IMG/VR virus record: IMGVR_UViG_2698536480_000007 | Reading direction: 5' to 3' (one strand) | Source of the DNA: a virus | Taxonomy: Duplodnaviria > Heunggongvirae > Uroviricota > Caudoviricetes | Length of the DNA stretch: 13,226 nucleotides | Shown here: one piece after another, positions 1 through 12,642 of the stretch | How the letters are laid out: every line of letters starts with the position of its first letter | How positions within the stretch are numbered: position 1 is the stretch's first letter | Translations under genes and position numbers: made by a program | Notes under the pieces: generated by a model | The model's input: the letters and a program-made list of their open reading frames with translations, nothing else | Told to the model about the DNA's origin: nothing | Database searches by the model: none

Positions 1-600
1 ATGGCGCATATACAACTGGTCAAACAAACCTCTTCCGGATTACTTCTCCCGGCGACGCCGGAGAGTTGTGATTTTCTGCATCAAATCAAAATAGGCGAGT
101 GGATACACGCAGACTTTAAGCGTGTGCGTAACTACGCATTCCACAAGCGTTTTTTCAAACTCCTGCAACTGGGATTCGATTACTGGACTCCGGTCGGTGG
201 GGCGATCACGCCTCGCGAACGAGAACTGCTGTCTGGTTTCGTTGATTACCTGTGCGAATCAGTTGGTCGGGAACACACGCCAGCCCTGAGTGATGCCGCA
301 GAGCAATATCTGAATACAGTTGCGACACGCAGAACCCGGGATACGGCATTGCTAAAGTCGTTTGAGGCTTTTCGCGAGTGGGTAACCATTCAGGCTGGAT
401 TTTACACCGAACATTTTTATCCGGACGGTAGCCGCGGGCGTCGGGCAAAATCTATCGCTTTTGCGAATATGGACGAAACCGAGTTTCAGCAGGTTTATAA
501 ATCTGTTCTGAATGTGCTGTGGAACTGGATTCTGTTCCGTAAATTTTCCTCTCCGGAACAAGTCGAAAATGTGGCCGCGCAGCTGCTGGAGTTTGCGTAA
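1..600 (+). CDS. lambdoid nin-region protein of unknown function (DUF1367-like, recalled from prophage homologues)
   Basis: 199-aa ORF starting at ATG at position 1 (window edge, so completeness of the 5' end is not certain). Stop TAA 598-600 shares its last A with the ATG of the next gene (TAATG coupling). Sits directly upstream of ybcO-like and Q-like genes as in nin regions. Confidence 0.45.
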   Translation: MAHIQLVKQTSSGLLLPATPESCDFLHQIKIGEWIHADFKRVRNYAFHKRFFKLLQLGFDYWTPVGGAITPRERELLSGFVDYLCESVGREHTPALSDAAEQYLNTVATRRTRDTALLKSFEAFREWVTIQAGFYTEHFYPDGSRGRRAKSIAFANMDETEFQQVYKSVLNVLWNWILFRKFSSPEQVENVAAQLLEFA

Positions 601-890
601 TGGTGGATTTACGTAAAGCGGCGCGGGGGCGGATGTGCACCGTCAGAATTCTTGGCTACTGCAATCACGATCCGGAAACGTCTGTGCTGGCGCATTACCG
701 ACTGGCGGGAACGTGCGGAACAGCGACAAAACCACACGATATGCAGGCGGCGATTGCCTGTAGCTCATGCCACGATTTAATCGACGGGCGGGTAAAAACA
801 AGCGATTACACCAAAGAAGATTTACGCCTGATGCATGCAGAAGGTGTTTTTCGCACGCAAGAAATCTGGAGAAAGGAAGGTTATTTATGA
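600..890 (+). CDS. YbcO-like small Cys-rich protein (DUF1364-type, putative Zn-binding nuclease)
   Basis: 96 aa with Cys pairs (CTVRILGYC ... IACSSCHDLID) consistent with a Zn site. Resembles DLP12 YbcO from memory. Start overlaps the upstream stop; its stop TGA 888-890 overlaps ATG 887 of the next gene. Confidence 0.55.
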   Translation: MVDLRKAARGRMCTVRILGYCNHDPETSVLAHYRLAGTCGTATKPHDMQAAIACSSCHDLIDGRVKTSDYTKEDLRLMHAEGVFRTQEIWRKEGYL

Positions 891-1429
891 TTTACCCAAC
901 AAATACAGGCAAAAGCGGGGAACACCTTCGTCTCACCACGCTGGAAAGTGTCTGGATTCAGGGAAAACTGCGCATGTGGGGGCGCTGGTCGTATATTGGC
1001 GGCGGTAAGACGGGGAATATGTTCAACCAGTTGTTGGCCTCTAAAAAGCTGACAAAAACGGCAATTAACGAGGCGCTCCGGAGGATGAAAAAAGCAGGTC
1101 TGAACAAGTCTGAACTTGAGGCTTTTTTGCGGGATATGATTAACGGTAAGCAAAAGAGCTGGCTGGCGCATTGTACTGATGCAGAGGCGTTATGTATTGA
1201 TCGGGTCATAAGTGAGGTGCTGGCAGAGCATCCAGGATTGATTAGCGTCCTTCGGCAACGGTATGAGGGGCGGGGGATGACCAAACGCAAAATGGCTGAA
1301 TTGCTAAATGATGCACACCCAGAGTGGTGTTTTAGCACATGCGAAAAGCGAATTGCTAATTGGTTGGCTGTTGCTGAGTATGCGCTATACATTCCCATGC
1401 GAGAATCATTCGCTCAAAAAACGGCTTGA
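887..1429 (+). CDS. late-gene antiterminator Q-like protein (not lambda-Q type; phage 82/21-like family by recollection)
   Basis: 180-aa ORF with GGAAGG Shine-Dalgarno 6 nt upstream and ATGA overlap with the preceding gene. Last gene of the nin-type operon immediately before tRNAs and the lysis cassette. Contains a CFSTCEKR Cys pair. The ORF-track start at 767 was rejected because it overlaps the upstream gene out of frame. Confidence 0.55.
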   Translation: MIYPTNTGKSGEHLRLTTLESVWIQGKLRMWGRWSYIGGGKTGNMFNQLLASKKLTKTAINEALRRMKKAGLNKSELEAFLRDMINGKQKSWLAHCTDAEALCIDRVISEVLAEHPGLISVLRQRYEGRGMTKRKMAELLNDAHPEWCFSTCEKRIANWLAVAEYALYIPMRESFAQKTA

Positions 1430-1515
1430 TTTTTTACGCGTAAACTGCTTCAATTTTGCTACGCTTCGCAAAGCTGTATCGCGAGGCGAATCAAGCGCAA
1501 TTAAACTTTAATAGA

Positions 1516-1541
1516 ACCCGCCATCAAGCGGGTTTTGTTGT
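1516..1541 (+). terminator. intrinsic terminator-like hairpin downstream of Q (candidate short-transcript terminator of a late promoter)
   Basis: Stem ACCCGC (1516-1521) / GCGGGT (1528-1533), 6-nt loop, followed by TTTGTTGTT. Confidence 0.45.
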
Positions 1542-1690
1542 TATTGTGGTGTGATATAAGAAACGACATTTAATATTGCCTTCAAAATAAATTTGTTTAT
1601 ATATTGTCGCGTATATTTTAAGTGAAGGTGAAATGTTCACATAAAATAAAAATACATAAATAAATTTACATAGCTTGACGCAAAGTGTTG

Positions 1691-1718
1691 TTGCGATTGG
1701 AATATTAAATCGTATCAT
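1691..1718 (+). promoter_or_regulatory. candidate sigma70-like promoter for the tRNA pair
   Basis: TTGCGA (1691-1696), 16-bp spacer, TATCAT (1713-1718), within a very AT-rich segment. A transcript starting near 1725 would begin at the leader hairpin. Hexamers only, weak. Confidence 0.2.
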
Positions 1719-1726
1719 CGAAAACG

Positions 1727-1790
1727 GTTCTGAGGGGGAACTCTTCTTTGCTCGGTGATATCGCTCGGTGATATCGCTCCCCTGAAGAAC
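1727..1790 (+). repeat. tRNA leader inverted repeat enclosing a 13-bp tandem duplication
   Basis: GTTCTGAGGGG (1727-1737) pairs with CCCCTGAAGAAC (1779-1790) around two tandem copies of GCTCGGTGATATC (1750-1762 and 1763-1775), each carrying a GATATC palindrome. Confidence 0.5.
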
Positions 1791-1794
1791 CAAT

Positions 1795-1870
<76 letters not shown>

Positions 1871-1873
1871 TAT

Positions 1874-1948
<75 letters not shown>

Positions 1949-2310
1949 GCATTTAAAACAAGCCTTATTGTATTACGGCACTGGCGTATTTTTTTATTAC
2001 GTGGGAGCAGGTTGTTTTGAAAAAGCATTCTGTTCTCTGGCTATGATTTGAGGCCGGGTGTAGCCTCAGTGCTAATTTTTTACGGCAGCAGAATGGTGCA
2101 TTATCGGTGGAGATTTTGTATTTCCTGGCAGGGTCGGTGATGCATCATTTTGGTGTTGTAAAAGCACCACAGAGGCGCTCCTCAGTGAGAGGGTGGTTTA
2201 AAGAGTCGGTTTAGCGGGAAACCACAGTATCCATGCAGCACGGAATACTTCGGGAGGCACCCGACGCCTCGGTTTAATAACAATTAAAAAATTCATCCCT
2301 TGCATTGACC

Positions 2311-2337
2311 AACCGCCATATCTGGCGGTTTTTTTTA
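2311..2337 (+). terminator. strong rho-independent terminator
   Basis: GC-rich stem AACCGCCA (2311-2318) / TGGCGGTT (2323-2330), loop TATC, followed by a run of T (2329-2336). Confidence 0.7.
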
Positions 2338-2724
2338 TTCCTTTCTCAGGACAAAAAAAGACACGAGCATACAGGAATACTCGTGGGACAACGTCCTTTA
2401 GATAGCAATTTGCGAGAGGGTGAAAAGTAGCGCGGTCGTCGGATTAAGACCGCGGGACAAAGTCCATGAAGAATAATAAGTATTGGCCCCTTCTGGGGAC
2501 ATGTTCATACTACTAAGCTTCAGAAGTGGTTTAAATCATCAAATTAACCTTAATTTTCGATAAGTCTTATTTCATTTCTTTGCGCCACACCTGGCGCGCA
2601 TCAAATAACGCCACGCAAAGGGCATCTGCGGATGCCGGTGCTTTTGACGGGGTGTTTTTTACGGGCCGCTGGTGGCCATTTTTTGTTTCCATTACACAGC
2701 GCCCGCATCTGCGAGGTGGGGGTT

Positions 2725-2940
2725 ATGAAATCCATGGATAAGTTAACAACAGGTGTCGCCTATGGCACCTCCGCAGGCAGTGCTGGCTACTGGTTTTTAC
2801 AGTTGCTCGATAGAGTCACGCCCTCACAGTGGGCAGCAATAGGTGTGCTGGGTAGTCTGGTGTTTGGCCTGTTGACGTATCTGACAAATCTTTATTTCAA
2901 GATTAAAGAAGATAAGCGTAAGGCTGCACGGGGAGAGTAA
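2725..2940 (+). CDS. class II holin, phage-21 S-type pinholin with dual-start motif
   Basis: 71 aa [26 protein letters not shown]...[11 protein letters not shown]: two TM segments, first one Gly/Ala-rich. N-terminal M-K-S-M gives the antiholin (Met1) and holin (Met4, ATG 2734) starts. SD GAGGTGGGGG upstream. The upstream part of the ORF-track ORF (from 2632) was rejected. Confidence 0.8.
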
Positions 2941-2944
2941 TTCA

Positions 2945-3289
2945 ATGACTCAAAACTATGAACTGATTGTGAAAGGGATCCGCAATTTTGAGAATAAAGT
3001 TACGGTAACTTTAGCGTTACGGGACAAAAAACGCTTTGACGGTGAAATTTTAGACCTGGACATCTCGCTGGACCGTGTTGAAGGTGCCGCGCTGGAGTTT
3101 TATGAGGCAGCAGCCAGAAGGAGCATCAGACAGGTCTTCCTGGATGTTGCTGCCGGGTTATGTGAAGGGGATGAGCAGTCACCGGAAAAGCGCCCCATAA
3201 TTTTAGAGGCGCAGGGTGTGTGGATAACCTACAAAGGAAAACTGCCGGGAAGAATTACTGGTTCACTGAAGACTCCGCCGAAATGGTAA
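2945..3289 (+). CDS. YdfR-like protein of unknown function (DUF1327-type, the kind found between holin and endolysin in Qin-type cassettes)
   Basis: 114 aa starting MTQNYELIVKGIRNFENKVTV...LEFYEAAARRS, recalled as YdfR-like. SD GGGGAGAG with ATG 5 nt after the holin stop (translational coupling). The C-terminal ~35 aa look atypical and overlap a convergent ORF. Confidence 0.55.
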   Translation: MTQNYELIVKGIRNFENKVTVTLALRDKKRFDGEILDLDISLDRVEGAALEFYEAAARRSIRQVFLDVAAGLCEGDEQSPEKRPIILEAQGVWITYKGKLPGRITGSLKTPPKW

Positions 3290-3527
3290 TTTCACCAGCA
3301 TATTTTTCTTCCAGTAATACCGCCAGCCACTTGAAAGAATTTTGTTGTTGCTGGGACCATTTGGGGTTGAGTGATTCAAGCTGGAGCGATGCCAGTGTTG
3401 GTTGCATTTGTTCCTTGGGAATTGAGAATGCCAGATATGAAAATGCGACAGTAAGGGCATTTACATCATCCCGAAGCTTGGAAATGCAGTCGAGCAACTC
3501 CTGTAGAGAAATGGTGCTATTGTCCAT
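3255..3527 (-). CDS. hypothetical small protein, convergent antisense gene in the holin-endolysin gap
   Basis: 90 aa from ATG (minus strand, + coords 3525-3527), preceded by AGAGAGGA with 6-7 nt spacer. Upstream on the minus strand are TTGAAT and TAAATA hexamers with 15-bp spacing. Fills a 343-bp gap that has no + strand gene. A chance ORF of this length is not excluded. Confidence 0.3.
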   Translation of the reverse strand: MDNSTISLQELLDCISKLRDDVNALTVAFSYLAFSIPKEQMQPTLASLQLESLNPKWSQQQQNSFKWLAVLLEEKYAGEITISAESSVNQ

Positions 3528-3632
3528 AAACAATCCTCTCTATTGTATTTAACTATTCCTTGCCTGATTCAACAGGCCGGGACAGATAAACATATCCAGG
3601 GTTCAGAAACCGATAAATCCTGATAAATATCC

Positions 3633-4166
3633 ATGAACGCAAAAATCAGATACGGCCTGTCGGCTGCCGTTCTGGCACTGATTGCCGTCGGTGCGCCTGC
3701 GCCTGATATTCTCGACCAGTTTCTGGATGAAAAAGAAGGTAACCACACAACGGCATACCGCGATGGTTCCGGCATCTGGACCATCTGTCGTGGTGCCACA
3801 ATGGTGGATGGTAAGCCCGTCATACCGGGAATGAGGCTGTCGAAGGAAAAATGCGACCAGGTTAACGCTATTGAACGTGATAAGGCGCTGGCATGGGTGG
3901 AGCGCAATATTAAAGTACCACTGACCGAACCACAGAAAGCGGGTATAGCGTCATTTTGTCCCTATAACATTGGCCCCGGTAAGTGTTTCCCGTCGACGTT
4001 TTATAAGCGGCTGAATGCCGGTGATCGTAAAGGTGCATGCGAGGCGATTCGCTGGTGGATAAAAGATGGTGGGCGCGATTGCCGCATACGTTCAAATAAC
4101 TGCTATGGACAGGTTATTCGTCGTGACCAGGAAAGCGCATTAGCCTGTTGGGGGATAGATCAGTGA
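3633..4166 (+). CDS. endolysin, GH24 T4-lysozyme-like with N-terminal SAR / signal-anchor-type segment
   Basis: 177 aa. Weakly hydrophobic Ala/Gly-rich N-terminus ([17 protein letters not shown]), then catalytic E-x8-D-x5-T triad ([16 protein letters not shown]). Partnered with a pinholin as in phage 21. Confidence 0.85.
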
Positions 4167-4627
4167 GCAGAGTCGCCGCGATTATTTATGCTCTGGTTAT
4201 CTGCATCATCGTCTGCCTGTCATGGGCTGTTAATCATTACCGTGATAACGCCACCGCCTACAAAGAGCAGCGCGACAAAAATGCCAGAGAACTGAAGCTG
4301 GCGAACGCGGCAATTACTGACATGCAGATGCGTCAGCGTGATGTTGCTGCGCTCGATGCAAAATACACGAAGGAGTTAGCTGATGCGAAAGCTGAAAATG
4401 ATGCTCTGCGTGATGATGTTGCCGCTGGTCGTCGTCGGTTGCACATCAAAGCAGTCTGTCAGTCAGTGCGTGAAGCCACCACCGCCTCCGGCGTGGATAA
4501 TGCAGCCTCCCCCCGACTGGCAGACACCGCTGAACGGGATTATTTCACCCTCCGGGAACGACTGGTAATGATGCAGGCCCAACTTGAAGGTGCTCAGCAA
4601 TACATAACCGAACAGTGTTTAAAGTAA
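4163..4627 (+). CDS. Rz: i-spanin Rz (lambda-type)
   Basis: [30 protein letters not shown]... matches lambda Rz closely through the central region from memory. GTG 4163 overlaps the endolysin stop TGA 4164-4166; the ORF-track start TTG 4148 is the alternative. N-terminal TM segment followed by a coiled-coil region. Confidence 0.85.
4383..4568 (+). CDS. Rz1: o-spanin Rz1 lipoprotein, embedded in Rz in the +1 frame
   Basis: 61 aa [24 protein letters not shown]...: lipobox LVVVGC, Pro-rich periplasmic part, near-identical to lambda Rz1 from memory. Confidence 0.8.
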
Positions 4628-4764
4628 AATCTTAACTACAATATGATTCATTTTGATGATTGTTTCATAAGGAACAGTGAAGTAAGATCTAAGAGGAGTT
4701 AAATTTTATACAGTATAATCATAATATTGCAGCAAGGTGGTTATAATTGAAAGAATATTTAGAT

Positions 4765-6222
4765 ATGAATACATCTCATGTAAGAGTTGTTACTCATATG
4801 TGTGGGTTCCTGGTTTGGCTCTATAGTCTTTCAATGTTGCCACCAATGGTTGTAGCATTGTTTTATAAAGAAAAAAGCCTGTTCGTTTTCTTTATAACTT
4901 TCGTTATATTTTTTTGTATTGGTGGCGGAGCGTGGTATACAACTAAGAAATCTGGCATTCAATTACGTACCCGTGATGGGTTTATTATAATTGTAATGTT
5001 TTGGATTTTGTTTTCTGTTATTAGTGCATTCCCTTTATGGATTGACTCAGAACTTAATTTAACGTTCATTGATGCTCTGTTTGAAGGGGTTTCTGGAATA
5101 ACAACAACAGGAGCAACTGTAATTGATGATGTTAGTTCATTACCTCGGGCATATTTGTACTATCGGTCACAGTTAAATTTTATAGGTGGTTTAGGAGTTA
5201 TTGTTCTGGCGGTTGCTGTATTGCCATTATTGGGTATTGGTGGTGCAAAGCTTTATCAGTCAGAAATGCCGGGGCCATTTAAGGATGACAAACTCACTCC
5301 CCGCCTGGCCGATACGTCACGGACACTGTGGATAACTTATTCTTTATTAGGTATTGCTTGTATTGTCTGTTATAGACTTGCAGGAATGCCTTTGTTTGAT
5401 GCTATTTGTCACGGGATTTCCACAGTTTCGCTTGGTGGTTTCTCAACTCATAGCGAGAGTATCGGATATTTTAATAACTATTTGGTTGAGCTGGTGGCTG
5501 GTTCTTTTTCCCTGCTATCGGCTTTCAACTTCACTCTTTGGTATATTGTTATTAGCAGGAAAACGATAAAACCTTTAATCAGAGATATTGAACTTCGTTT
5601 CTTTCTGTTAATAGCCTTAGGGGTGATCATTGTTACCTCTTTCCAGGTCTGGCATATAGGTATGTATGACTTGCATGGAAGTTTTATTCATTCGTTTTTT
5701 CTTGCCAGCTCCATGCTCACTGATAATGGTTTAGCTACGCAGGATTATGCAAGCTGGCCCACGCACACGATAGTGTTTTTGCTGTTGTCAAGTTTCTTTG
5801 GGGGATGTATAGGTTCAACTTGTGGTGGAATTAAGTCACTTCGATTTCTTATACTTTTCAAACAAAGCAAACACGAGATAAATCAGCTTTCTCATCCCAG
5901 AGCGTTGTTGAGTGTAAATGTAGGAGGGAAGATAGTTACAGATCGTGTAATGAGGTCTGTATGGAGTTTCTTTTTTCTTTATACTCTCTTCACGGTGTTT
6001 TTTATACTGGTGTTAAATGGTATGGGATATGATTTTCTTACATCATTTGCAACAGTGGCTGCATGTATTAATAATATGGGATTAGGTTTTGGGGCTACTG
6101 CATCGTCATTCGGAGTGCTTAATGACATTGCAAAATATTTAATGTGCATAGCTATGATTCTTGGTCGCCTTGAAATTTATCCTGTTATTATATTGTTTTC
6201 AGGTTTTTTTTGGCGCTCCTAA
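4765..6222 (+). CDS. trkG: TrkG/TrkH-family potassium uptake transporter
   Basis: 485 aa from ATG 4765 (MNTSHVRVVTHMCGF...), multi-pass membrane protein with repeated GxG selectivity-filter-like segments (GISGITTTGAT, GIGGAK, SLGGFST, GLGFGAT). Matches K-12 Rac TrkG as recalled. A TTG at 4747 with better SD spacing is an alternative start. The gene is visibly AT-rich relative to its flanks. Confidence 0.85.
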   Translation: MNTSHVRVVTHMCGFLVWLYSLSMLPPMVVALFYKEKSLFVFFITFVIFFCIGGGAWYTTKKSGIQLRTRDGFIIIVMFWILFSVISAFPLWIDSELNLTFIDALFEGVSGITTTGATVIDDVSSLPRAYLYYRSQLNFIGGLGVIVLAVAVLPLLGIGGAKLYQSEMPGPFKDDKLTPRLADTSRTLWITYSLLGIACIVCYRLAGMPLFDAICHGISTVSLGGFSTHSESIGYFNNYLVELVAGSFSLLSAFNFTLWYIVISRKTIKPLIRDIELRFFLLIALGVIIVTSFQVWHIGMYDLHGSFIHSFFLASSMLTDNGLATQDYASWPTHTIVFLLLSSFFGGCIGSTCGGIKSLRFLILFKQSKHEINQLSHPRALLSVNVGGKIVTDRVMRSVWSFFFLYTLFTVFFILVLNGMGYDFLTSFATVAACINNMGLGFGATASSFGVLNDIAKYLMCIAMILGRLEIYPVIILFSGFFWRS

Positions 6223-6308
6223 TATATGGCTGATTTATAATTGTGAGTTTAATATTATGTTGACTCACTCATTGATCCAATACCTAACTTTACCAGCAAC
6301 ACCTCCGC

Positions 6309-6340
6309 CCCCAGTAGCACTGGCTGCTGGGGTGCGTTTT
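6309..6340 (+). terminator. intrinsic terminator downstream of trkG
   Basis: 10-bp stem CCCCAGTAGC (6309-6318) / GCTGCTGGGG (6323-6332) with one G-U pair, loop ACTG, followed by TGCGTTTTATT. Confidence 0.5.
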
Positions 6341-6359
6341 ATTCATAAAGCAAGGATGT

Positions 6360-7151
6360 ATGAGCGAGAAATTAAAGATAGTCTATCGCCCATTACAAGA
6401 ATTGTCACCGTATGCGCACAACGCCAGGACGCACAGCCCTGAGCAGGTGGCACAACTGGTAGAAAGTATTAAGCAATTCGGCTGGACTAATCCGGTGCTG
6501 ATTGACGAAAAGGGCGAAATTATTGCGGGTCACGGTCGTGTTATGGCGGCTGAAATGCTCAAAATGGATTCTGTTCCGGTCATTGTTCTGTCTGGCCTGA
6601 CGGATGAGCAGAAAAAGGCGTACCGCCTGGCAGATAATCGCCTGCCGATGAATGCTGGCTGGGATGAAGATCTGTTGCGGATGGAGCTGTCGGACCTAAT
6701 CAATGCTGATTTTGATGTCTCCCTGACAGGCTTCATCCCGACAGAAATTGATGAACTGTTGACGGATGTTTTGCCCGGTACAGGAAATGAGGAGGAGCCG
6801 TATACGACGAAAATTGATACGCCTGTTTATGAGCCGTCGGGCGGTAAACCGGATATCAGTGAACTGTACGACGATACGAAAACGCAGGAGCTGATCAGCC
6901 GGATACGTTCGGCTTCCCTTGAGCCTGATATTGAGAAATTCCTCCTGTGTGCGGCAGAACGTCACACGGTGTTTAATTTCAGCAGAATTGCGGACTATTA
7001 CGCTCACGCCCCCGCTGAAATTCAGTGTTTTTTCGAGGAGTCGGCGCTGGTGATCATTGATTATCAGCAGGCTATTGAAAATGGATTTGTCCGGATGACG
7101 CAGCGCATGGTGGAGATCATGCATGGTGGTGAGGAGGAGGAATATGCGTGA
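6360..7151 (+). CDS. ParB-like nuclease-domain protein (ParB/Srx N-terminal-type domain plus unassigned acidic C-terminal region)
   Basis: 263 aa. N-terminal region ...LQELSPYAHNARTHSPEQVAQLVESIKQFGWTNPVLIDEKGEIIAGHGRVMAAE... carries the G-H-G-R type signature of ParB-like domains. K-12 Rac has a short ynaK fragment at this position (from memory). Ends in an EEEE tail whose codons form the SD for the next gene. Confidence 0.6.
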   Translation: MSEKLKIVYRPLQELSPYAHNARTHSPEQVAQLVESIKQFGWTNPVLIDEKGEIIAGHGRVMAAEMLKMDSVPVIVLSGLTDEQKKAYRLADNRLPMNAGWDEDLLRMELSDLINADFDVSLTGFIPTEIDELLTDVLPGTGNEEEPYTTKIDTPVYEPSGGKPDISELYDDTKTQELISRIRSASLEPDIEKFLLCAAERHTVFNFSRIADYYAHAPAEIQCFFEESALVIIDYQQAIENGFVRMTQRMVEIMHGGEEEEYA

Positions 7152-8076
7152 TGATTTTTGCGCCTTTATTCTGACTCACGGGCGACCGGACAAAGTTCTG
7201 ACTTACCGAACGTTGCGTCGTGCTGGCTATACCGGGAAAATTTTTATCGTTGTTGATGATGAAGATAAGACACGGCATCAGTACATGGCTGAATTTGGTG
7301 AACAGGTGCTGGTGTTTTCCAAAACCGATATCGCCAGTCGTTTTGACGAAGCCGATAATTTCTGTGACCGCCGCTCAATTTTTTACGCCCGTAATGCCTG
7401 TTTCGACCTGGCAAAACTGGTCGGGTGTAAATACTTCATTCAGCTCGATGATGATTATCACGAGTTCCAGTTTCGGGTGGATCGCAACTATGACCAGGCC
7501 TATTTTCCGATAAGGAAACTGGATGCGATCCTTTCTGAAATGCTGGCGTACTACGAATCAATACCTGCTCTTTCCATCGCTATGTCGCAGGGCGGGGATT
7601 TTCTTGGTGACAATGGCGGCCATGCTTCGTGGGTGAAACGCAAGGCAATGAACAGCTTTATCTGTTCGGTTGATCGACCGTTCTCATTCATGGGGCGCAT
7701 TAACGAGGATGTGAATACGTACACGAATCTCGGTCGCTGTGGTGAATTGTTTATGACGATCGGTGCTGTCCAGTTAGGGCAGAAACAGACGCAGAAAAAC
7801 AGCGGCGGAATGACCGAGCTGTATCTGGATTCCGGAACCTACGTTAAAAGTTTTTACTCCGTCATGTATGCGCCGTCGTGCGTAAAAATTTCACTGATGG
7901 GTGCCAGCCATAAACGCATTCACCATCAGGTCACCTGGAACAACGCTGCAGTAAAAATCCTTCACGAAAAATACAGGAAGAAGACACCCTGCATATCAAT
8001 GGGGGTGACAAATGATTCCGTATTCGAAAGTCGAGTCTCTGGCAGCGTGCCGGATGACTGCACAACAAATCGCTGA
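7144..8076 (+). CDS. hypothetical protein with GT-A-fold glycosyltransferase-like motif pattern (YdaY-position protein)
   Basis: 310 aa from ATG 7144, preceded by GAGGAGGAGG and overlapping the upstream ORF by 8 nt. Motifs AFILTHGRPD, IFIVVDDED, FIQLDDDY (DxD-like) and GRINEDVN fit the order seen in nucleotide-sugar transferases. No TM segments. Assignment from motif pattern only. The last ~25 aa look non-protein-like. Confidence 0.45.
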   Translation: MRDDFCAFILTHGRPDKVLTYRTLRRAGYTGKIFIVVDDEDKTRHQYMAEFGEQVLVFSKTDIASRFDEADNFCDRRSIFYARNACFDLAKLVGCKYFIQLDDDYHEFQFRVDRNYDQAYFPIRKLDAILSEMLAYYESIPALSIAMSQGGDFLGDNGGHASWVKRKAMNSFICSVDRPFSFMGRINEDVNTYTNLGRCGELFMTIGAVQLGQKQTQKNSGGMTELYLDSGTYVKSFYSVMYAPSCVKISLMGASHKRIHHQVTWNNAAVKILHEKYRKKTPCISMGVTNDSVFESRVSGSVPDDCTTNR

Positions 8077-8263
8077 CGTTCTGGATGTTGATCTGAACCG
8101 ACTGAAAGAAAATCGGGAAGCAATGACAGATTTTTATGCGGCCATCCGTAAGGGCAGAGCGAAAGGTGAAGCCGAGTTACGAGCGGCATTGTTTAAGCTT
8201 GCCAGAAAAGGGGATGCCTTTGCTCTGCGCGAACTACTCAGGGTGGATAAAAATCAGGACTAA
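8012..8263 (+). CDS. small helix-turn-helix-like protein, possibly terminase-small-subunit-related or regulatory
   Basis: 83 aa (69 aa if from ATG 8054): ...MTAQQIADVLDVDLNRLKENREAMTDFYAAIRKGRAKGEAELRAALFKLARKGDAFALRELL. Stop TAA 8261-8263 lies 3 nt before the next ATG. From 8012 it overlaps the upstream ORF by 65 nt, so the true start is uncertain. Confidence 0.35.
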   Translation: MIPYSKVESLAACRMTAQQIADVLDVDLNRLKENREAMTDFYAAIRKGRAKGEAELRAALFKLARKGDAFALRELLRVDKNQD

Positions 8264-8266
8264 CTG

Positions 8267-9031
8267 ATGAGCAGACCGGACTGGGGGGCGTTGCAGCAGG
8301 AGTATATTGCTGAATACACCCGCTCCGGTATATCTCCGGTGGCATGGTGTGAAGCAAGGGGACTGAATTACGCAACAGCCCGTCGTTACATCAAAAAAAC
8401 TCCGAAAAATGCGCAGACAGAAATGCGCAAAACTGCGCAAAAAAGTGCGCAGAAAAAATCTGCGCAGACTGCACAAAAGCGGAACGAAAAATCTCAGGAA
8501 AAAAAGCCAGTATTCGATGCGGGCCTGAATGAGGGCGACGCGGAGGAATTTTCGTTCTGTCCCGATGAATTCGGCATTTCTGACCAGCAGGCTAAGTTTG
8601 CGATGCTTGTTGCTCAGGGTAAAAAGCCGACAGAGGCGTACCGACTAATGGGGCTTCGTGAAGAGATTCAGTCAGAGGTTGCCGCTGCTTTTGATGAGGA
8701 TTTAGCGGACGCCGTGAGTGATTTTTCTGGTTCTTACGTTACGCACCGGCACTGGGATCCTGTGACGGAAACTGGCGGCGAATCCACCGCAATCTATACC
8801 GGGCGAGGCGTGTTGACACGTTATAAGCTGGGCAGAATTGATGGGATTAATATTTTGCATGGTGACCTTAAATTAACCGCTCTGGTATGCGAGGTTACGG
8901 ATAAACCAGCTGTCGACCATATTATTGAGATTTATGATCCTGTATCAAGGCAGTTACAACGATACGAGGTAATTACAGCAAGTGTAGATCCTTCCGCATC
9001 AGTTTACTCTATCCAGTTAAGGAGAGCGTAA
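8267..9031 (+). CDS. chimeric ORF: terminase-small-subunit-like N-terminal region fused to a head-tail joining (adaptor)-like C-terminal region
   Basis: 254 aa. N-terminal HTH-like segments (SGISPVAWCEARGLNYATARRYIKK and ISDQQAKFAMLVAQGKKPTEAYRLMG) separated by a K/Q/A-rich linker. C-terminal ~95 aa (…HIIEIYDPVSRQLQRYEVITASVDPSASVYSIQLRRA) resembles head-tail adaptor proteins by pattern. Followed directly by tail genes with no terminase large subunit, portal or capsid ORFs. Confidence 0.45.
   Translation: MSRPDWGALQQEYIAEYTRSGISPVAWCEARGLNYATARRYIKKTPKNAQTEMRKTAQKSAQKKSAQTAQKRNEKSQEKKPVFDAGLNEGDAEEFSFCPDEFGISDQQAKFAMLVAQGKKPTEAYRLMGLREEIQSEVAAAFDEDLADAVSDFSGSYVTHRHWDPVTETGGESTAIYTGRGVLTRYKLGRIDGINILHGDLKLTALVCEVTDKPAVDHIIEIYDPVSRQLQRYEVITASVDPSASVYSIQLRRA
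8410..8475 (+). repeat. cluster of palindromic TGCGCA hexamers phased with A-tracts
   Basis: TGCGCA at 8410, 8424, 8434, 8446 and 8461 plus variant TGCACA at 8470, each preceded by A-runs. Encodes the linker ...NAQTEMRKTAQKSAQKKSAQTAQK. Confidence 0.6.
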
Positions 9032-9412
9032 ATGGCAAAGGCATGGGATATAGAACCGTCAATATTTGCCGGGATGATTGAGGAAGATGTAGGGCTGAAG
9101 ATTCGCTACATCGCTATGCAGATTCTTACTGCTATTGATATTGCTGCTCCGGTTGATACCGGACGTTTCAGAAATAACAACCTGGTGTCGTTACAGCATC
9201 CCGATTTTGGTATATCTGATAACGTGGATCCGAACGGTACGATTGCTGTTCAGCGTGGGATCGGGGTTATTTCGAAAGCTGCAAATTACGGGGTTATTTA
9301 TATCCAGAATAACCTTCCTTATGCAGAGGCTCTTGAAAACGGTCATTCACAACAAGCGCCAACTGGCGTGTATGCCAACGCTTTTCATGGTGTTTTACAG
9401 GCTTACAAATGA
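9032..9412 (+). CDS. HK97 gp10-like tail-component (head-tail/neck) protein
   Basis: 126 aa with AAPVDTGRFRNN and NNLPYAEALENG motifs typical of the HK97 gp10 family as recalled. SD AAGGAG; ATG immediately follows the upstream stop. Confidence 0.55.
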   Translation: MAKAWDIEPSIFAGMIEEDVGLKIRYIAMQILTAIDIAAPVDTGRFRNNNLVSLQHPDFGISDNVDPNGTIAVQRGIGVISKAANYGVIYIQNNLPYAEALENGHSQQAPTGVYANAFHGVLQAYK

Positions 9413-9801
9413 AGTTTACTGAAATCAGAAATACGGTTATTTCCAGAATGACGGCACAGACGATTATTGATGGAAAAGACGTATTGTATCCGAACGGGCC
9501 AACGTTCGATCCTTCCGGTAAGTTAATCTGGGCGCGGTTAAGTAATATTCCCGGGCAGGCTGGAGTTAATGAAATTGGCGCGGGGCCGGTTGTTTATCGC
9601 ACGGGGATAATCATTATTCAGTTATTTGTCCCCGCAGGTTCTGGTTCAAAACTCATTACTGAGACAGCCGATAAATTGCGGGAACTGTTTGAGTTTCAGG
9701 ATGACGATCGTCTCAGTTACCAGGCTGTTTCCTCAATAGCCGTCGGCGAAAAGAATGGCTGGTTCCAGCTTAATCTTCAAATTCCATATCGCGCGCTCTA
9801 G
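9409..9801 (+). CDS. tail-terminator / tail-completion-like protein (DUF3168-type position)
   Basis: 130 aa. ATGA overlap with the upstream gene. Sits between the gp10-like gene and the major tail gene, the conserved siphovirus order. Assigned mainly by synteny. Confidence 0.45.
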   Translation: MKFTEIRNTVISRMTAQTIIDGKDVLYPNGPTFDPSGKLIWARLSNIPGQAGVNEIGAGPVVYRTGIIIIQLFVPAGSGSKLITETADKLRELFEFQDDDRLSYQAVSSIAVGEKNGWFQLNLQIPYRAL

Positions 9802-9827
9802 CGCAATTAATGACATAGGAGGCTCCT

Positions 9828-10757
9828 GTGAGTTCAGGTGCAAAGGTTATCTCGGCATTTATCCGGGAGACAGTTGCAGGCACTACGCCAGCAAGTGGTG
9901 ACTGGAGTTTATTAAAACGCACAAGCTGGGGAGTAAAACCCACCCAGAATAAAGGCGAAAATAATGAGATTGGTGGCTCCCGGATGGCTCAGGGGGCGAC
10001 GCCTGGCACTGTGGATGTCGGCGGTGATGTTGGTACCAAATTTCGCTGGGGTCAACATGATGATTTTCTTGCATCCTGTTTCGGCGCGGAATGGTCAGGC
10101 GATTCTCTGACAATGGGGAATGAGCGAATAACATTTTCTCTGGCGACCTATGCGTCCGATGTCGGAATTGCCTCTGTCGTCAGAGGAGCGCAGGTTGGCT
10201 CATGGAAAATGCAGATCCCTAACGACGGCGATATTACAGCGACCGTAACCTTTGCCGGGCTGGGCTGGGAATCAAAGGCCGATGATACGAATTTTATCAA
10301 AGGCGAACCTGTGGATAGTGCAGGAAAGTTACGCTATTCGTTTAAGGAGGTTTCAGCAGTAAGCCTGAATGGTGTTGCCGGAGGTAACGGTTTTTGTATC
10401 GACAGTTTTGATATTCAGTTCGATAACAAACTCCAGACACAGCGTTGTATCGGGACTGGCTCGCCTTATGCAGGAGCAAATATTCCGACTACTTTTACAC
10501 CGTCCGGTACGGTGACGCTTTCATGGTCTAAAGCCGCGTGGGAAATCTGGAGTAAAACACTGACTGGAGAAACAGTTCCGTTCAGCTTCACGCTTTCGAA
10601 TGGAGAGGGGGCATACACTTTCAGTTTCCCGAAGGTTCAGGTGTCAGGTGAATGGCCTGATGGGGGTAATAGCGACATTATCCAGGTTCAATTGAGCATT
10701 ACCGCAGCAGATGAAGCACCTACGATAACCAGAAAAAAAATTCCCCGGCTGCCGTGA
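9828..10757 (+). CDS. major tail (tail tube) protein
   Basis: 309 aa, GTG start 5 nt after AGGAGG. Beta-rich Gly/Thr/Ser-rich composition and position immediately upstream of the chaperone G/GT pair. Confidence 0.6.
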   Translation: MSSGAKVISAFIRETVAGTTPASGDWSLLKRTSWGVKPTQNKGENNEIGGSRMAQGATPGTVDVGGDVGTKFRWGQHDDFLASCFGAEWSGDSLTMGNERITFSLATYASDVGIASVVRGAQVGSWKMQIPNDGDITATVTFAGLGWESKADDTNFIKGEPVDSAGKLRYSFKEVSAVSLNGVAGGNGFCIDSFDIQFDNKLQTQRCIGTGSPYAGANIPTTFTPSGTVTLSWSKAAWEIWSKTLTGETVPFSFTLSNGEGAYTFSFPKVQVSGEWPDGGNSDIIQVQLSITAADEAPTITRKKIPRLP

Positions 10758-10837
10758 TCGCAAAAGCCAGTGCTGAGGCGATTAGTTGATTTTCCGTTAT
10801 TCCTCCTGTGGTACTGCCCTACAGGGGGACGCATTGA

Positions 10838-11299
10838 ATGAGGTTATGGATGTTTATTCTTAATCAGAAAATTATCATTGGTGGAGAACGCTGGTTTACG
10901 CCAATGAAGGACTTAAAACCTGTAGACGGGTTAAAACTGTTGGTGGCAAGCAGCGATAACGATCAGTATCGCTCCCGTAATGCATTAATCCGTCGCCACA
11001 TTGAGAAAATGGATGCCAGTTTGCACGTCGGAACGAAGGAGTTTGATATTTCAAAGGTTTCCGAGGTGGATTCTGTTGATGATTTACTCATTGATAATGC
11101 CGCTCGTTATCTGCTGAAAGACTGGAAAGGGGTTGGTGAACTGGTTAATGGTGTTGAGGTTGCACTGGAATATACGGCAGAACGAGGGATCGCGCTGCTT
11201 AAGCAGAATCCAGAGTTGTACTGGCAGATCCTTGCAGAAGCAGCCAGCATCGCCCAGGGTAAAGAGCAGCAGAAGCAGGATACGATAAAAAAGCCATAG
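10838..11299 (+). CDS. tail assembly chaperone (lambda gpG analogue)
   Basis: 153-aa acidic protein ending ...DTIKKP with the slippery heptamer A-AAA-AAG (11287-11293) two codons before its stop. Start could instead be an internal Met. Confidence 0.6.
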   Translation: MRLWMFILNQKIIIGGERWFTPMKDLKPVDGLKLLVASSDNDQYRSRNALIRRHIEKMDASLHVGTKEFDISKVSEVDSVDDLLIDNAARYLLKDWKGVGELVNGVEVALEYTAERGIALLKQNPELYWQILAEAASIAQGKEQQKQDTIKKP

Positions 11300-11607
11300 C
11301 TGCCCAGCGGTGGTTATCGGAGTTCGGGGGAGAAAGGGGGGAAAAGGCAAGATGGAAGCGAGAAAAACTCAGGTTGCCACCGATACCGGAACCAGAAATA
11401 GACCCGGTGCTTAAGGAGTTGTTGTACGCCTATTCGGTAATATCCCGTGCCCGACGTTATGCTGGAATGGCTGGGGTGCCTTTGCCTTTATCTCTGACAG
11501 AGATAAATGAATATTTAGCCACTCATCCGGTATTGATTGAGCGCGATGAATTTGAAGCAGTGATCTTTGCACTGGATGACCAGTATTTTCAGGAGCAGTG
11601 TGTGTAG
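10838..11607 (+). CDS. tail assembly chaperone GT-like fusion made by programmed -1 ribosomal frameshift
   Basis: The -1 frame is open from 11263 to the stop at 11605-11607. Slipping at A-AAA-AAG (11287-11293) continues ...KK-AIAAQRWLSEFGGERGEKARWKREKLRLPPIPEPE... to 11607. The ORF-track ORF 11374-11607 is the tail of this extension. Confidence 0.5.
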
Positions 11608-11727
11608 TTGTTAATTACGTACACTCTGTTACAGAGATGTGATGGTGTCTTTAATTAAATCGATGATGCTCCTGGAGAAAAGCATTGCGTGGCCTCGTAA
11701 TCGCTATATCTACTATTATGTCGCCTG

Positions 11728-11753
11728 AAACCCACTTCGCGGTGGGTTTTTTG
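11728..11753 (+). terminator. intrinsic terminator-like hairpin between chaperone genes and the next ORF
   Basis: Stem AAACCCAC (11728-11735) / GTGGGTTT (11742-11749), loop TTCGCG, then TTTTGTTG. Confidence 0.45.
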
Positions 11754-11772
11754 TTGTCAGGAGTTTTAATAA

Positions 11773-12642
11773 ATGGCAGAGCAAACCTCGCGTCTCGCAA
11801 TAATTATTGATAGCACTGGAGCGAAAAATAATGCTGACAATCTGACCTCCTCATTAGTCAAAATGACGCAGGCTGGGGAAACTGCTGCAAATAGCGCAGG
11901 GAAAGTGACTAAGGCAACAGAAGATGAGAAGAACGCGCTCGCAAAATTAAAAGCAGCTATTGATCCAGTTGGTGCCGCAATTGATACTGTCGGTCGACGC
12001 TATTCTGAATTAAAGAAATTTTTCGATAAAGGGCTTATTGATAAAGAAGAATATGAATTTCTTGTCCGTAAACTTAATGAAACCACAGAGGAATTGAGCG
12101 GGGTTGCGCAAGCGCAGAGAGAAGCCGAGAAGGCCGGAAAACTTGCTGCCGCCCAGCAGGAAGCGCAGGCTCAGGCCTTTCAAAGAATGCTGGACAAGAT
12201 CGACCCTCTGGCTGCGGCGCTAAGAAATCTTGAACAACAGCATGATGAACTTAATGCTGCGTTTGCATCCGGGAAAATAAATGGTTCTCAGTTTGAGAAT
12301 TATAGCCGAAAAATACAGGAAACACGGCGAGAGCTTACCGGAGAGGCTCAGGCAGAGCGAGAAGCAGCAAAAGCGCATGATGAACAGGTTGTTGCTTTGC
12401 AACGTCTGATTGGTCTGGGCATTGGCACGATGGCGAATACGAACTCTGCTGGCGCGCATACCCACTCACTGTCCGGCACTGCTGCAAGCGCAGGTGCACA
12501 CGCACATACTGTCGGTATTGGTGCTCATACGCACTCCGTTGCGATTGGTTCACATGGACACACCATCACCGTTAACGCTGCTGGTAACGCGGAAAACACC
12601 GTCAAAAACATCGCATTTAACTATATTGTGAGGCTTGCATAA
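11773..12642 (+). CDS. chimeric ORF: tape-measure-like N-terminal coiled-coil region fused in frame to the C-terminal receptor-binding tip of a lambda Stf-type side tail fibre
   Basis: 289 aa. N-terminus [20 protein letters not shown]... and helical Q/A/E-rich repeats fit a tape-measure N-terminus and position. The last ~65 aa ([66 protein letters not shown]) match the lambda Stf / T4 gp37-type HxH tip from memory. Stop TAA 12640-12642 overlaps the tfa ATG. Confidence 0.55.

Follow-up and report, generated by a model that had tools for sequence, protein, structure and literature searches.

A probable P1-type pac site formed by TGCGCA hexamers within the small-terminase gene of Rac-like prophages

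The hexamer array and the gene that carries it

The DNA analysed here, referred to as the window, is a stretch of 13,226 bp from the IMG/VR virus record IMGVR_UViG_2698536480_000007, the late region of a Rac-like lambdoid prophage. All coordinates are those of the whole window, read 5' to 3', with position 1 as its first letter. Our subject is a cluster of the hexamer TGCGCA inside the gene for a small terminase subunit (TerS), where it lies right behind the codons of an N-terminal helix-turn-helix (HTH) domain. The domain and the array are composed as follows.

8267–8392, plus strand: PacA-like N-terminal HTH, codons 1–42, assigned from an AlphaFold2 (AF2) model, a phrog_1711 match and hhalign
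8393–8557, plus strand: disordered linker rich in Lys, Gln and Ala, about codons 43–97, which hosts the array, assigned from AF2 per-residue confidence (predicted local distance difference test, pLDDT)
8410–8415, no strand: TGCGCA hexamer 1, codons aaT GCG CAg (N-A-Q)
8424–8429, no strand: TGCGCA hexamer 2, in another frame, aTG CGC Aaa (M-R-K)
8434–8439, no strand: TGCGCA hexamer 3 (T-A-Q)
8446–8451, no strand: TGCGCA hexamer 4 (S-A-Q)
8461–8466, no strand: TGCGCA hexamer 5 (S-A-Q)
8470–8475, no strand: TGCACA, a one-transition variant, with TGCGCA at the same spot in many close relatives

The five TGCGCA and single TGCACA reported in the first-pass annotation, 9–15 bp apart, are thus confirmed at 8410–8475, with successive spacings of 14, 10, 12, 15 and 9 bp. 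The array spans nucleotides (nt) 144–209 of the TerS gene, right behind HTH codons 1–42. A count over the window, as had been proposed, gave 8 copies of TGCGCA versus 5.1 expected, and only three of them (969, 6413 and 12105) lie outside the array. The overall number is unremarkable; the clustering is not: when 8 sites were placed at random 20,000 times, five never fell within 100 bp.

The cluster could be a by-product of a Lys/Gln/Ala linker expanded by replication slippage, with no function at the DNA level. The imperfect tandem units that Tandem Repeats Finder detects in the array would fit such an origin, as would a copy number that varies from 4 to 7 by unit-sized indels among relatives and a disordered linker that tolerates other reading frames. 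As a peptide control, the residues of codons 44–75 (KTPKNAQTEMRKTAQKSAQKKSAQTAQKRNEK) were held fixed and synonymous codons were redrawn from the window's own usage. The resampled sequences had a mean of 0.62 hexamers, and five or more arose with P = 4.5 × 10−5; coding for a low-complexity peptide is therefore not enough to explain the hexamers. Moreover, four TGCGCA copies and the TGCACA variant are read in the frame xxT-GCG/GCA-CAr (x-Ala-Gln), and the copy at 8424 encodes Met-Arg-Lys. The use of a second frame, together with the resampling, indicates that the repeat is a property of the DNA and not of the peptide.

In intact relatives TerS has 364 aa and matches Terminase_2 (PF03592) over residues 122–321 (35.1 bits, cut-off 26.1), as well as phrog_51. 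The AF2 model of the first 127 residues contains a three-helix unit (helices at 6–20, 24–31 and 35–38+, pLDDT 78–89), a disordered segment (residues 52–91, pLDDT 40–47) and the start of the Terminase_2 HTH. The hexamers map exactly onto the DNA encoding the disordered tether. The recognition helix reads ...NYATARRYI and includes Arg39. The N-terminal 127 aa of the window protein match phrog_1711, the P1 PacA family, over residues 6–79 (E = 3.8 × 10−6; P1 PacA itself scores 4.2 × 10−202), and hhalign aligned the domain profile with PacA residues 3–40 (...FNLNPNTARRYLR) over 38 columns, with a probability of 84.7% and E = 6.7 × 10−6. Homology to PacA is moderately supported and confined to this short domain. 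Pfam has no family for the 45-aa domain, with weak HTH_23, HTH_29 and HTH_Tnp_1 hints in relatives only, and a sequence search of the PDB returned nothing beyond a marginal match, in which the Terminase_2 HTH aligned with the small terminase of Pam5 (E = 0.24). The TerS of this Rac-like phage type consists of a PacA-like three-helix domain, a flexible linker of about 50 residues and an ordinary Terminase_2 core. The PacA-like module was found on three TerS cores: phrog_51 (Terminase_2), phrog_370 and phrog_1711.

Insertions of one A in three A-runs (P0037, L083/L084) cause the linker to be read in other frames (KCAERNAQNCAKKCAKKK...). In L083/L084 the frame is regained before the core, giving a full-length TerS with a wholly different linker peptide and unchanged hexamers. 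The single-A insertions that shift the linker frame lie in A7–A8 runs (L083 2236–2612, L084 and L121, relatives of 8390–8510), and they reflect either a real tolerance of the linker or homopolymer sequencing errors.

Conservation of the array and covariation with residue 39

The same arrangement recurs throughout a comparison set drawn from GenBank phages and four scans of IMG/VR, which holds 201 distinct sequences with 85 different 42-aa domains and reaches down to about 36% protein identity. The arrays of 82 close relatives in IMG/VR hold 4–7 copies and differ by unit-sized indels (for example, L066–L068) and single-base variants. L085, the most divergent E. coli-type gene, has 6/6 hexamers at spacings of 14, 10, 12, 15 and 9 bp, with changed spacers and flanking codons. 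Further away, Klebsiella phage ST974-OXA48phi18.2 (39.5% protein identity) carries six TGCGCA, translated as TAQ, TAQ, PAQ, LRT, TAQ and KCAE, and Klebsiella-type genes have a second hexamer cluster at nt about 359–400. Three TGCGCA and one AGCGCA are present in E. coli phage PHB10, the array being still there at 36–41% protein identity, and Aeromonas phiARM81mr has seven TGCGCA on a TerS core without a Pfam match.

The 141 distinct arrays of the R type (defined below by residue 39) contain 780 TGCGCA, distributed over the three frames as 601/131/48. At least two frames are used in 133/141 of these arrays and all three in 31. In the linkers of relatives, 94% of Ala-Gln dipeptides are written T-GCG-CA, whereas outside the linker GCG accounts for about 23% of the gene's Ala codons. 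The density of the cognate hexamer is 3.2 per 50 bp right behind the HTH, versus 0.00–0.05 in most flanking bins, and no cluster of comparable density occurs elsewhere in whole phage genomes. The comparison of DNA with protein conservation proposed at first pass thus came out on the side of the DNA: hexamers persist across diverged spacers and in all frames. Their persistence to 36% protein identity also counts against replication slippage, as does the switch of hexamer type with residue 39 of the adjacent HTH. On the grounds of the resampling, the frame use and the 94% T-GCG-CA, the peptide by-product entertained in the first-pass annotation is rejected, and we consider it extremely improbable.

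The module is widespread: 930/5,426 complete E. coli genomes carry it, as do 254 phage records, Shiga-toxin (Stx) phages among them, and more than 590 IMG/VR contigs. A separate observation concerns the TerS of Rac-SA53 (KU052037; L090 1450–2478), which is fused to gpO through a deletion whose right end falls inside the array, with loss of the HTH. Two of its five remaining hexamers are intact, the others being the variants TTCGCA, TGCGCT and TGCCCA. With its reader domain gone, the array may have decayed, an anecdotal case (n = 1).

At the equivalent place, Yersinia vB_YenM, Providencia PSTCR3, Klebsiella RothC and Pasteurella Pmp11 carry TGCGAA, with copies often paired as the palindrome TGCGAATTCGCA. 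The recognition helix of this class reads ...TAKRYIK, and that of the TGCGCA class ...TARRYIK. Arg39 (140 sequences, plus one with His) accompanies TGCGCA in 141/141 cases, with 3–9 copies, and Lys39 accompanies TGCGAA/TTCGCA in 60/60, with 4–9 copies. Column 39 holds all 0.859 bits of the type information, the next best column holding 0.459. About 10 type switches are required on a neighbour-joining tree, a tree of a 42-residue domain being weak, and several domain pairs that differ just at residue 39 and one other position have opposite arrays. The perfect match between residue 39 and array argues for functional coupling, because the Arg/Lys exchange is common and other helix positions are free within each class, yet there are zero mismatches.

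Genes of the Lys39 type contain a cognate TGCGAA within the HTH coding sequence itself, made up by the codons ACT GCG AAR of Thr-Ala-Lys39 (for example, L087 1610–1626 and L092 565–580). In this type, a mean of 0.68 cognate hexamers per locus falls in the 50 bp before the HTH coding end.

The A-runs offer a different explanation, in which the functional feature is intrinsically curved DNA arising from phased A-tracts and the hexamers are incidental. A-runs of 3–7 bases do lie between the hexamers, and the positions flanking hexamers are A-rich across R-type arrays. The first-pass statement that a run of A precedes each hexamer holds in so far as the runs lie between hexamers, but they do not always abut them (AAAAC-T, AAAAAAG-T, AAAAAATC-T and GAC-T). 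Curved A-tract DNA is defined by A-tracts repeating every 10–10.6 bp or so, with a net planar bend. In 8391–8510, however, the resultant of AA dinucleotides is highest, 0.55, at 11.5–12 bp and falls to 0.10 at 10.5 bp. The tangent bend from a wedge model is 7.9 degrees, which ranks 1258 among 1311 windows (bend values are approximate, as are the wedge parameters). Aeromonas (phiARM81mr) and Pasteurella relatives, moreover, keep the hexamers with few, differently placed or no A-tracts. Phasing near the helical repeat was therefore not borne out (the AA period is about 11.7 bp and the bend is not exceptional), and a curvature element is, in our judgement, highly unlikely.

The palindromic hexamers might instead act in the mRNA, with neighbouring UGCGCA pairing into hairpins that tune TerS translation. 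The RNA of 8395–8490 folds at −31.7 kcal/mol (z = −5.7 versus shuffles), and the Aeromonas and Klebsiella arrays give z = −3.9 and z = −3.1, respectively. Such extra stability is, however, automatic for repeated palindromes. The Yersinia array reaches only z = −1.6, and that of Pasteurella Pmp11, with eight direct TGCGAA and no inverted copy, is no better than its shuffles (z = +1.5). As pairing would also leave the covariation with a protein residue unexplained, we attach hardly any credence to a role in the mRNA. A restriction or methylation target was also considered and dropped: TGCGCA is the FspI site and contains GCGC, but TGCGAA is non-palindromic and TGCGCA is not avoided elsewhere in the window.

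Deletion endpoints and the state of the prophage

The array lies in an open reading frame (ORF) that was created by a deletion. The features concerned are the following.

8267–9031, plus strand: 254-aa fusion ORF, TerS codons 1–127 in frame with a complete 127-aa gene
8647/8648: the window's own deletion junction
8639–8653, no strand: hot spot of independent deletion endpoints (seven deletions)

Alignment to the intact relative ON032529 pairs window positions 4426–8647 with 1–4222 and 8646–12412 with 11446–15213. Through a 7,223-bp deletion, TerS codon 127 is now followed in frame by the start codon of the 127-aa gene, which lies 7.2 kb downstream of the TerS portion in intact relatives. Lost with it were the TerS core, the large terminase TerL (Terminase_6N/6C), the portal (DUF4055), a Mu-F-like protein and coat genes. 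As these are missing, the array in the window is a relic; it would not work on its own and would need the terminase of a related phage with the same specificity. The 254-aa fusion ORF matched no Pfam family because the TerS core is deleted, and the gene is a truncated remnant of a Terminase_2 member. The fusion is real, since the exact protein recurs on more than 20 public E. coli contigs (for example, CDP75867.1), and its junction was found in no complete E. coli genome of the collection searched. A second deletion, at 12412/12435 versus ON032529 (15214–27138), removed the tape measure, the tail tip and most tail-fibre genes. With its two deletions, the window is what remains of a dead prophage.

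Seven independent prophage deletions end within 15 bp of each other inside TerS, at 8639–8653. Five of them (the window, L420, L421, L422 and L426) share a left end after ...CCGACTA (ON032529 4222, window 8647). Four of their right ends lie at about 11.4, 22.5, 26.4 and 27.2 kb on the ON032529 scale and the fifth in another tail-fibre gene, of an LT-II prophage; the L421 junction sits on a 4.56-Mb contig. The deletion of L423/L424 ends 6 nt further on, through a 12-nt microhomology, and that of L427, which comes from the left (ParB to TerS), ends 5–8 nt before the shared site. Other TerS fusions end at scattered codons (78, 97, 208, 226 and 244). The partner sides have no common motif, and a 2-bp TA microhomology is present at two junctions. 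Such one-sided precision suggests the trace expected of a site-specific double-strand break followed by end joining, and 8639–8653 may be the pac cleavage region, 165–180 bp 3' of the array. The homologous codons of Klebsiella-type genes (the AIR/AGY boundary, nt about 297) fall between the two hexamer clusters, like the P1 cut. Exact-pattern scans for the deletion junctions (GCCGACAGAGGCGTACCGACTAH) returned nothing from viral or genome contig collections. The ends of contigs and records were also considered as packaging ends and were discarded, as assembly or prophage-prediction boundaries explain them equally well.

In order, the window carries genes for DUF1367, YbcO, a Q-like antiterminator, holin, lysozyme, Rz and TrkG; these are followed by a ParB_N protein, a TAGT glycosyltransferase, an 83-aa ORF and the ORF with the array, and then by the tail terminator, the tail tube, YdaY and tail-fibre fragments. 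The 83-aa ORF (8012–8263; 69 aa in public annotations) directly precedes TerS and matches the middle of phrog_309, 'terminase small subunit' (E = 8.3 × 10−23). Relatives from Klebsiella, Yersinia, Pasteurella and Aeromonas lack it upstream of their arrays. Its product had been named as a possible binder of the array; in other lineages it is the TerS N-terminal domain, and not this protein, that stays beside the array.

The gene for the ParB_N-domain protein (phrog_620, 6360–7151) overlaps that for the glycosyltransferase (7123–8076), and the pair lies directly upstream of the terminase genes. The glycosyltransferase is TET-associated (PF20691, E = 3.3 × 10−35; phrog_842, 'beta-glucosyl-HMC-alpha-glucosyltransferase'). 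Both genes are kept in intact relatives and are candidates for a DNA-modification pair; no TET/JBP or methyltransferase was seen in the window. Two short tandem repeats, at 1639–1672 (period 14) and at 1750–1779 (period 13, perfect, 2.3 copies of GCTCGGTGATATC), lie between the Q-like gene and the holin gene, the zone of lambdoid late promoters and terminators. The reference record ON032529.1 (L410, 'Salmonella phage SPF_0923, complete genome') begins in the Rz/TrkG region of a Rac-like prophage and runs past the tail genes, at 28143–35262, into chromosomal sitABCD, uspF, ompN and pyruvate-flavodoxin oxidoreductase. Either the boundaries of a prophage were misplaced in this record, or it represents DNA that was packaged in situ in the rightward direction, starting from the prophage.

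A putative pac site and its relation to known packaging systems

Taken together, our results indicate that the TGCGCA cluster is most likely the set of sites by which the N-terminal domain of TerS recognises a P1-type pac site. The linker DNA carries 4–9 copies of the very hexamer that this domain would read. The core proposal of the first-pass annotation, a pac or terminase-binding array within the TerS gene, is strongly supported by this comparative evidence, namely conservation at 36–50% identity, the use of three frames, the covariation with residue 39 and the homology to P1 PacA. The precedents it had named were P22 and SPP1; the placement inside the TerS gene stands, but the closest precedent is P1.

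The P1-type pac element has been known since the 1980s. According to the P1 record, pacA contains four TGATCA at nt 194–233 and TGATCA/G at 324–380, with an annotated integration host factor (IHF) site and the primary pac cleavages between the clusters, at nt about 276–285. In published work, the seven P1 hexamers are recognition elements of the pacase, and recoding them synonymously lowered the titre about nine-fold. The window resembles P1 in having hexanucleotide repeats inside the small-terminase gene, just 3' of a homologous N-terminal HTH (...LN.xTARRY[IL]...). Both have a cluster of at least 3–4 copies of one hexanucleotide at an irregular spacing of 7–15 bp, and in both the peptide encoded by the repeats is of low complexity, with 'DH' in P1 and 'AQ' in the window. 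The pattern TG..CA is common to TGATCA and TGCGCA. The two systems differ in the rest of the machinery, with a Terminase_2 core and a Terminase_6N/6C TerL in intact relatives versus the PacA core and PacB in P1.

Several observations weigh against this interpretation. We infer the function of TGCGCA and TGCGAA arrays from comparison only, and a Foldseek search of the PDB with the AF2 model gave no significant match (best E = 1.9), the weak hits being mostly HTH. Part of the perfect association with residue 39 could be linkage and not selection, because codon 39 and the array are only about 20–90 bp apart and recombination would rarely separate them. Nor can residue 39 be the whole code, since P1 PacA (...TARRY...) has the equivalent Arg but uses TGATCA. 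The window array contains no GATC, its hexamer being TGCGCA, so that control by Dam methylation cannot apply. The E. coli type has a single cluster, whereas HEX4 and HEX3 flank the cut in P1; no second cluster was found in the intact E. coli-type gene, where the only other exact TGCGCA follows after about 780 bp and variants with one mismatch occur as isolated copies. A consensus scan for IHF (WATCAANNNNTTR, at most 1 mismatch) found no site in 7441–10052. The presumed cut lies about 170 bp from the array, versus about 45 bp in P1. Finally, the hot spot consists of seven draft or metagenome-derived junctions, and 873/889 complete E. coli genomes with the region are intact across the proposed cut.

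The hexamers might also be operators through which the TerS HTH, or another regulator, controls transcription or translation of the terminase operon without marking DNA for packaging. The DNA-level evidence indicates just that a protein with this HTH reads the array and not what follows; as the array is within the mRNA-coding region of the gene itself, a bound protein could block RNA polymerase. Against such control, the domain always occurs in a small terminase, on three different TerS cores, its P1 homologue adjoins hexamers that are experimentally part of pac, and a hot spot of breaks lies just downstream of the array. We therefore regard operators as unlikely, although less so than the readings dismissed above.

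For the pac site, the following sequence of events may be proposed. In a TerS oligomer, several PacA-like HTH domains, each held by a flexible tether of about 50 residues, would bind the array multivalently, so that irregular spacing (7–16 bp) and a variable copy number would be tolerated. The bound array would mark the DNA, and the core would recruit TerL. TerL would cut nearby, probably 165–180 bp downstream (8639–8653), and headful packaging would start there, running, by analogy with P1, in the direction of transcription.

A broader reading, which we offer only tentatively and hold to be rather less probable than a pac site as such, is that array and HTH form a portable cassette of packaging specificity. 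Carried on unrelated cores, it would be retargeted from TGCGCA to TGCGAA by the Arg/Lys39 switch and would direct a fixed cut about 170 bp downstream that leaves recurrent deletion scars in prophages, and its relics could still be usable. Such a cassette would be common to P1, Stx phages (933W), Rac-like prophages and many Klebsiella, Yersinia, Pasteurella and Aeromonas phages. If so, relic arrays could act as chromosomal pac sites for related superinfecting phages, leading to directional transduction of neighbouring host DNA.

How the small terminases of headful (pac) phages pick their own DNA is unsettled. A 2022 review describes specific binding of TerS to pac as weak or undetectable in vitro for P22, Sf6, SPP1 and SF6. 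The present family could offer a handle on this question, with a short, repeated and mutable site, a separable 45-residue domain and a natural one-residue switch that predicts the outcome of a swap. A known pac site would help to predict the chromosomal regions mobilised by these prophages, to design or block phagemid packaging, as already done with P1, and to interpret the recurrent deletions that inactivate Rac-like prophages. In the searchable literature, with most subscription journals outside the search, we found no description of the TGCGCA/TGCGAA classes or the residue-39 rule, nor of the spread of the module to Stx and other temperate phages or the deletion hot spot.

Among other systems, the pac of Bacillus phage SPP1/SF6 (pacL-pacC-pacR), with its G1P, shares the core family PF03592 and has repeated short boxes bound by an HTH ring at a site that partly overlaps the TerS gene. 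It has no extra PacA-like N-terminal domain, however, and its boxes differ and flank the cut. Specific TerS binding has been difficult to demonstrate in SPP1. Salmonella phage P22 is a headful packager with pac inside its small-terminase gene (gene 3), but its site is a single asymmetric 22-bp element without a hexamer array, and its TerS is unrelated in fold and family. In lambda, the repeated R-sites of cosB are read by the N-terminal winged HTH of gpNu1, and specificity differences among related phages map to the recognition helix. Lambda nevertheless differs in being a cos system with cohesive ends, with sites upstream of the gene and IHF-assisted bending.

The nearest parallels come from other arrays behind an HTH. 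The TerS of 933W, like that of some 200 Stx-phage records, has a PacA-like N-terminal domain, with the helix ...NTARTRIK. At the start of its tether lie four (C/T)GATCA units, each followed by T, at an exact 12-bp spacing and encoding IDHEIDHKTDHEIDH.

L412 1501–1700 (NC_000924 28775–28975): TerS region of 933W with the hexamers

These units can be classed as P1-type pac hexamers and contain Dam sites; the searchable literature yielded no account of a pac site in 933W. Copies of TGTGCA/TGCGCA lie about 60–85 nt beyond them. In P0143 (L425 185–515, a contig of GCA_047587765.1), the same Terminase_2 core has a different N-terminal HTH (VSHTTINNRARKEGW), and about seven GTGGAAA(C)/GTTTCCAC repeats lie in the DNA of its linker, a further class of HTH plus array. 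The arrangement of an HTH followed by an array thus recurs with at least four classes of site: TGATCR, as in P1, TGCGCA, as in the window, TGCGAA and GTGGAAAC.

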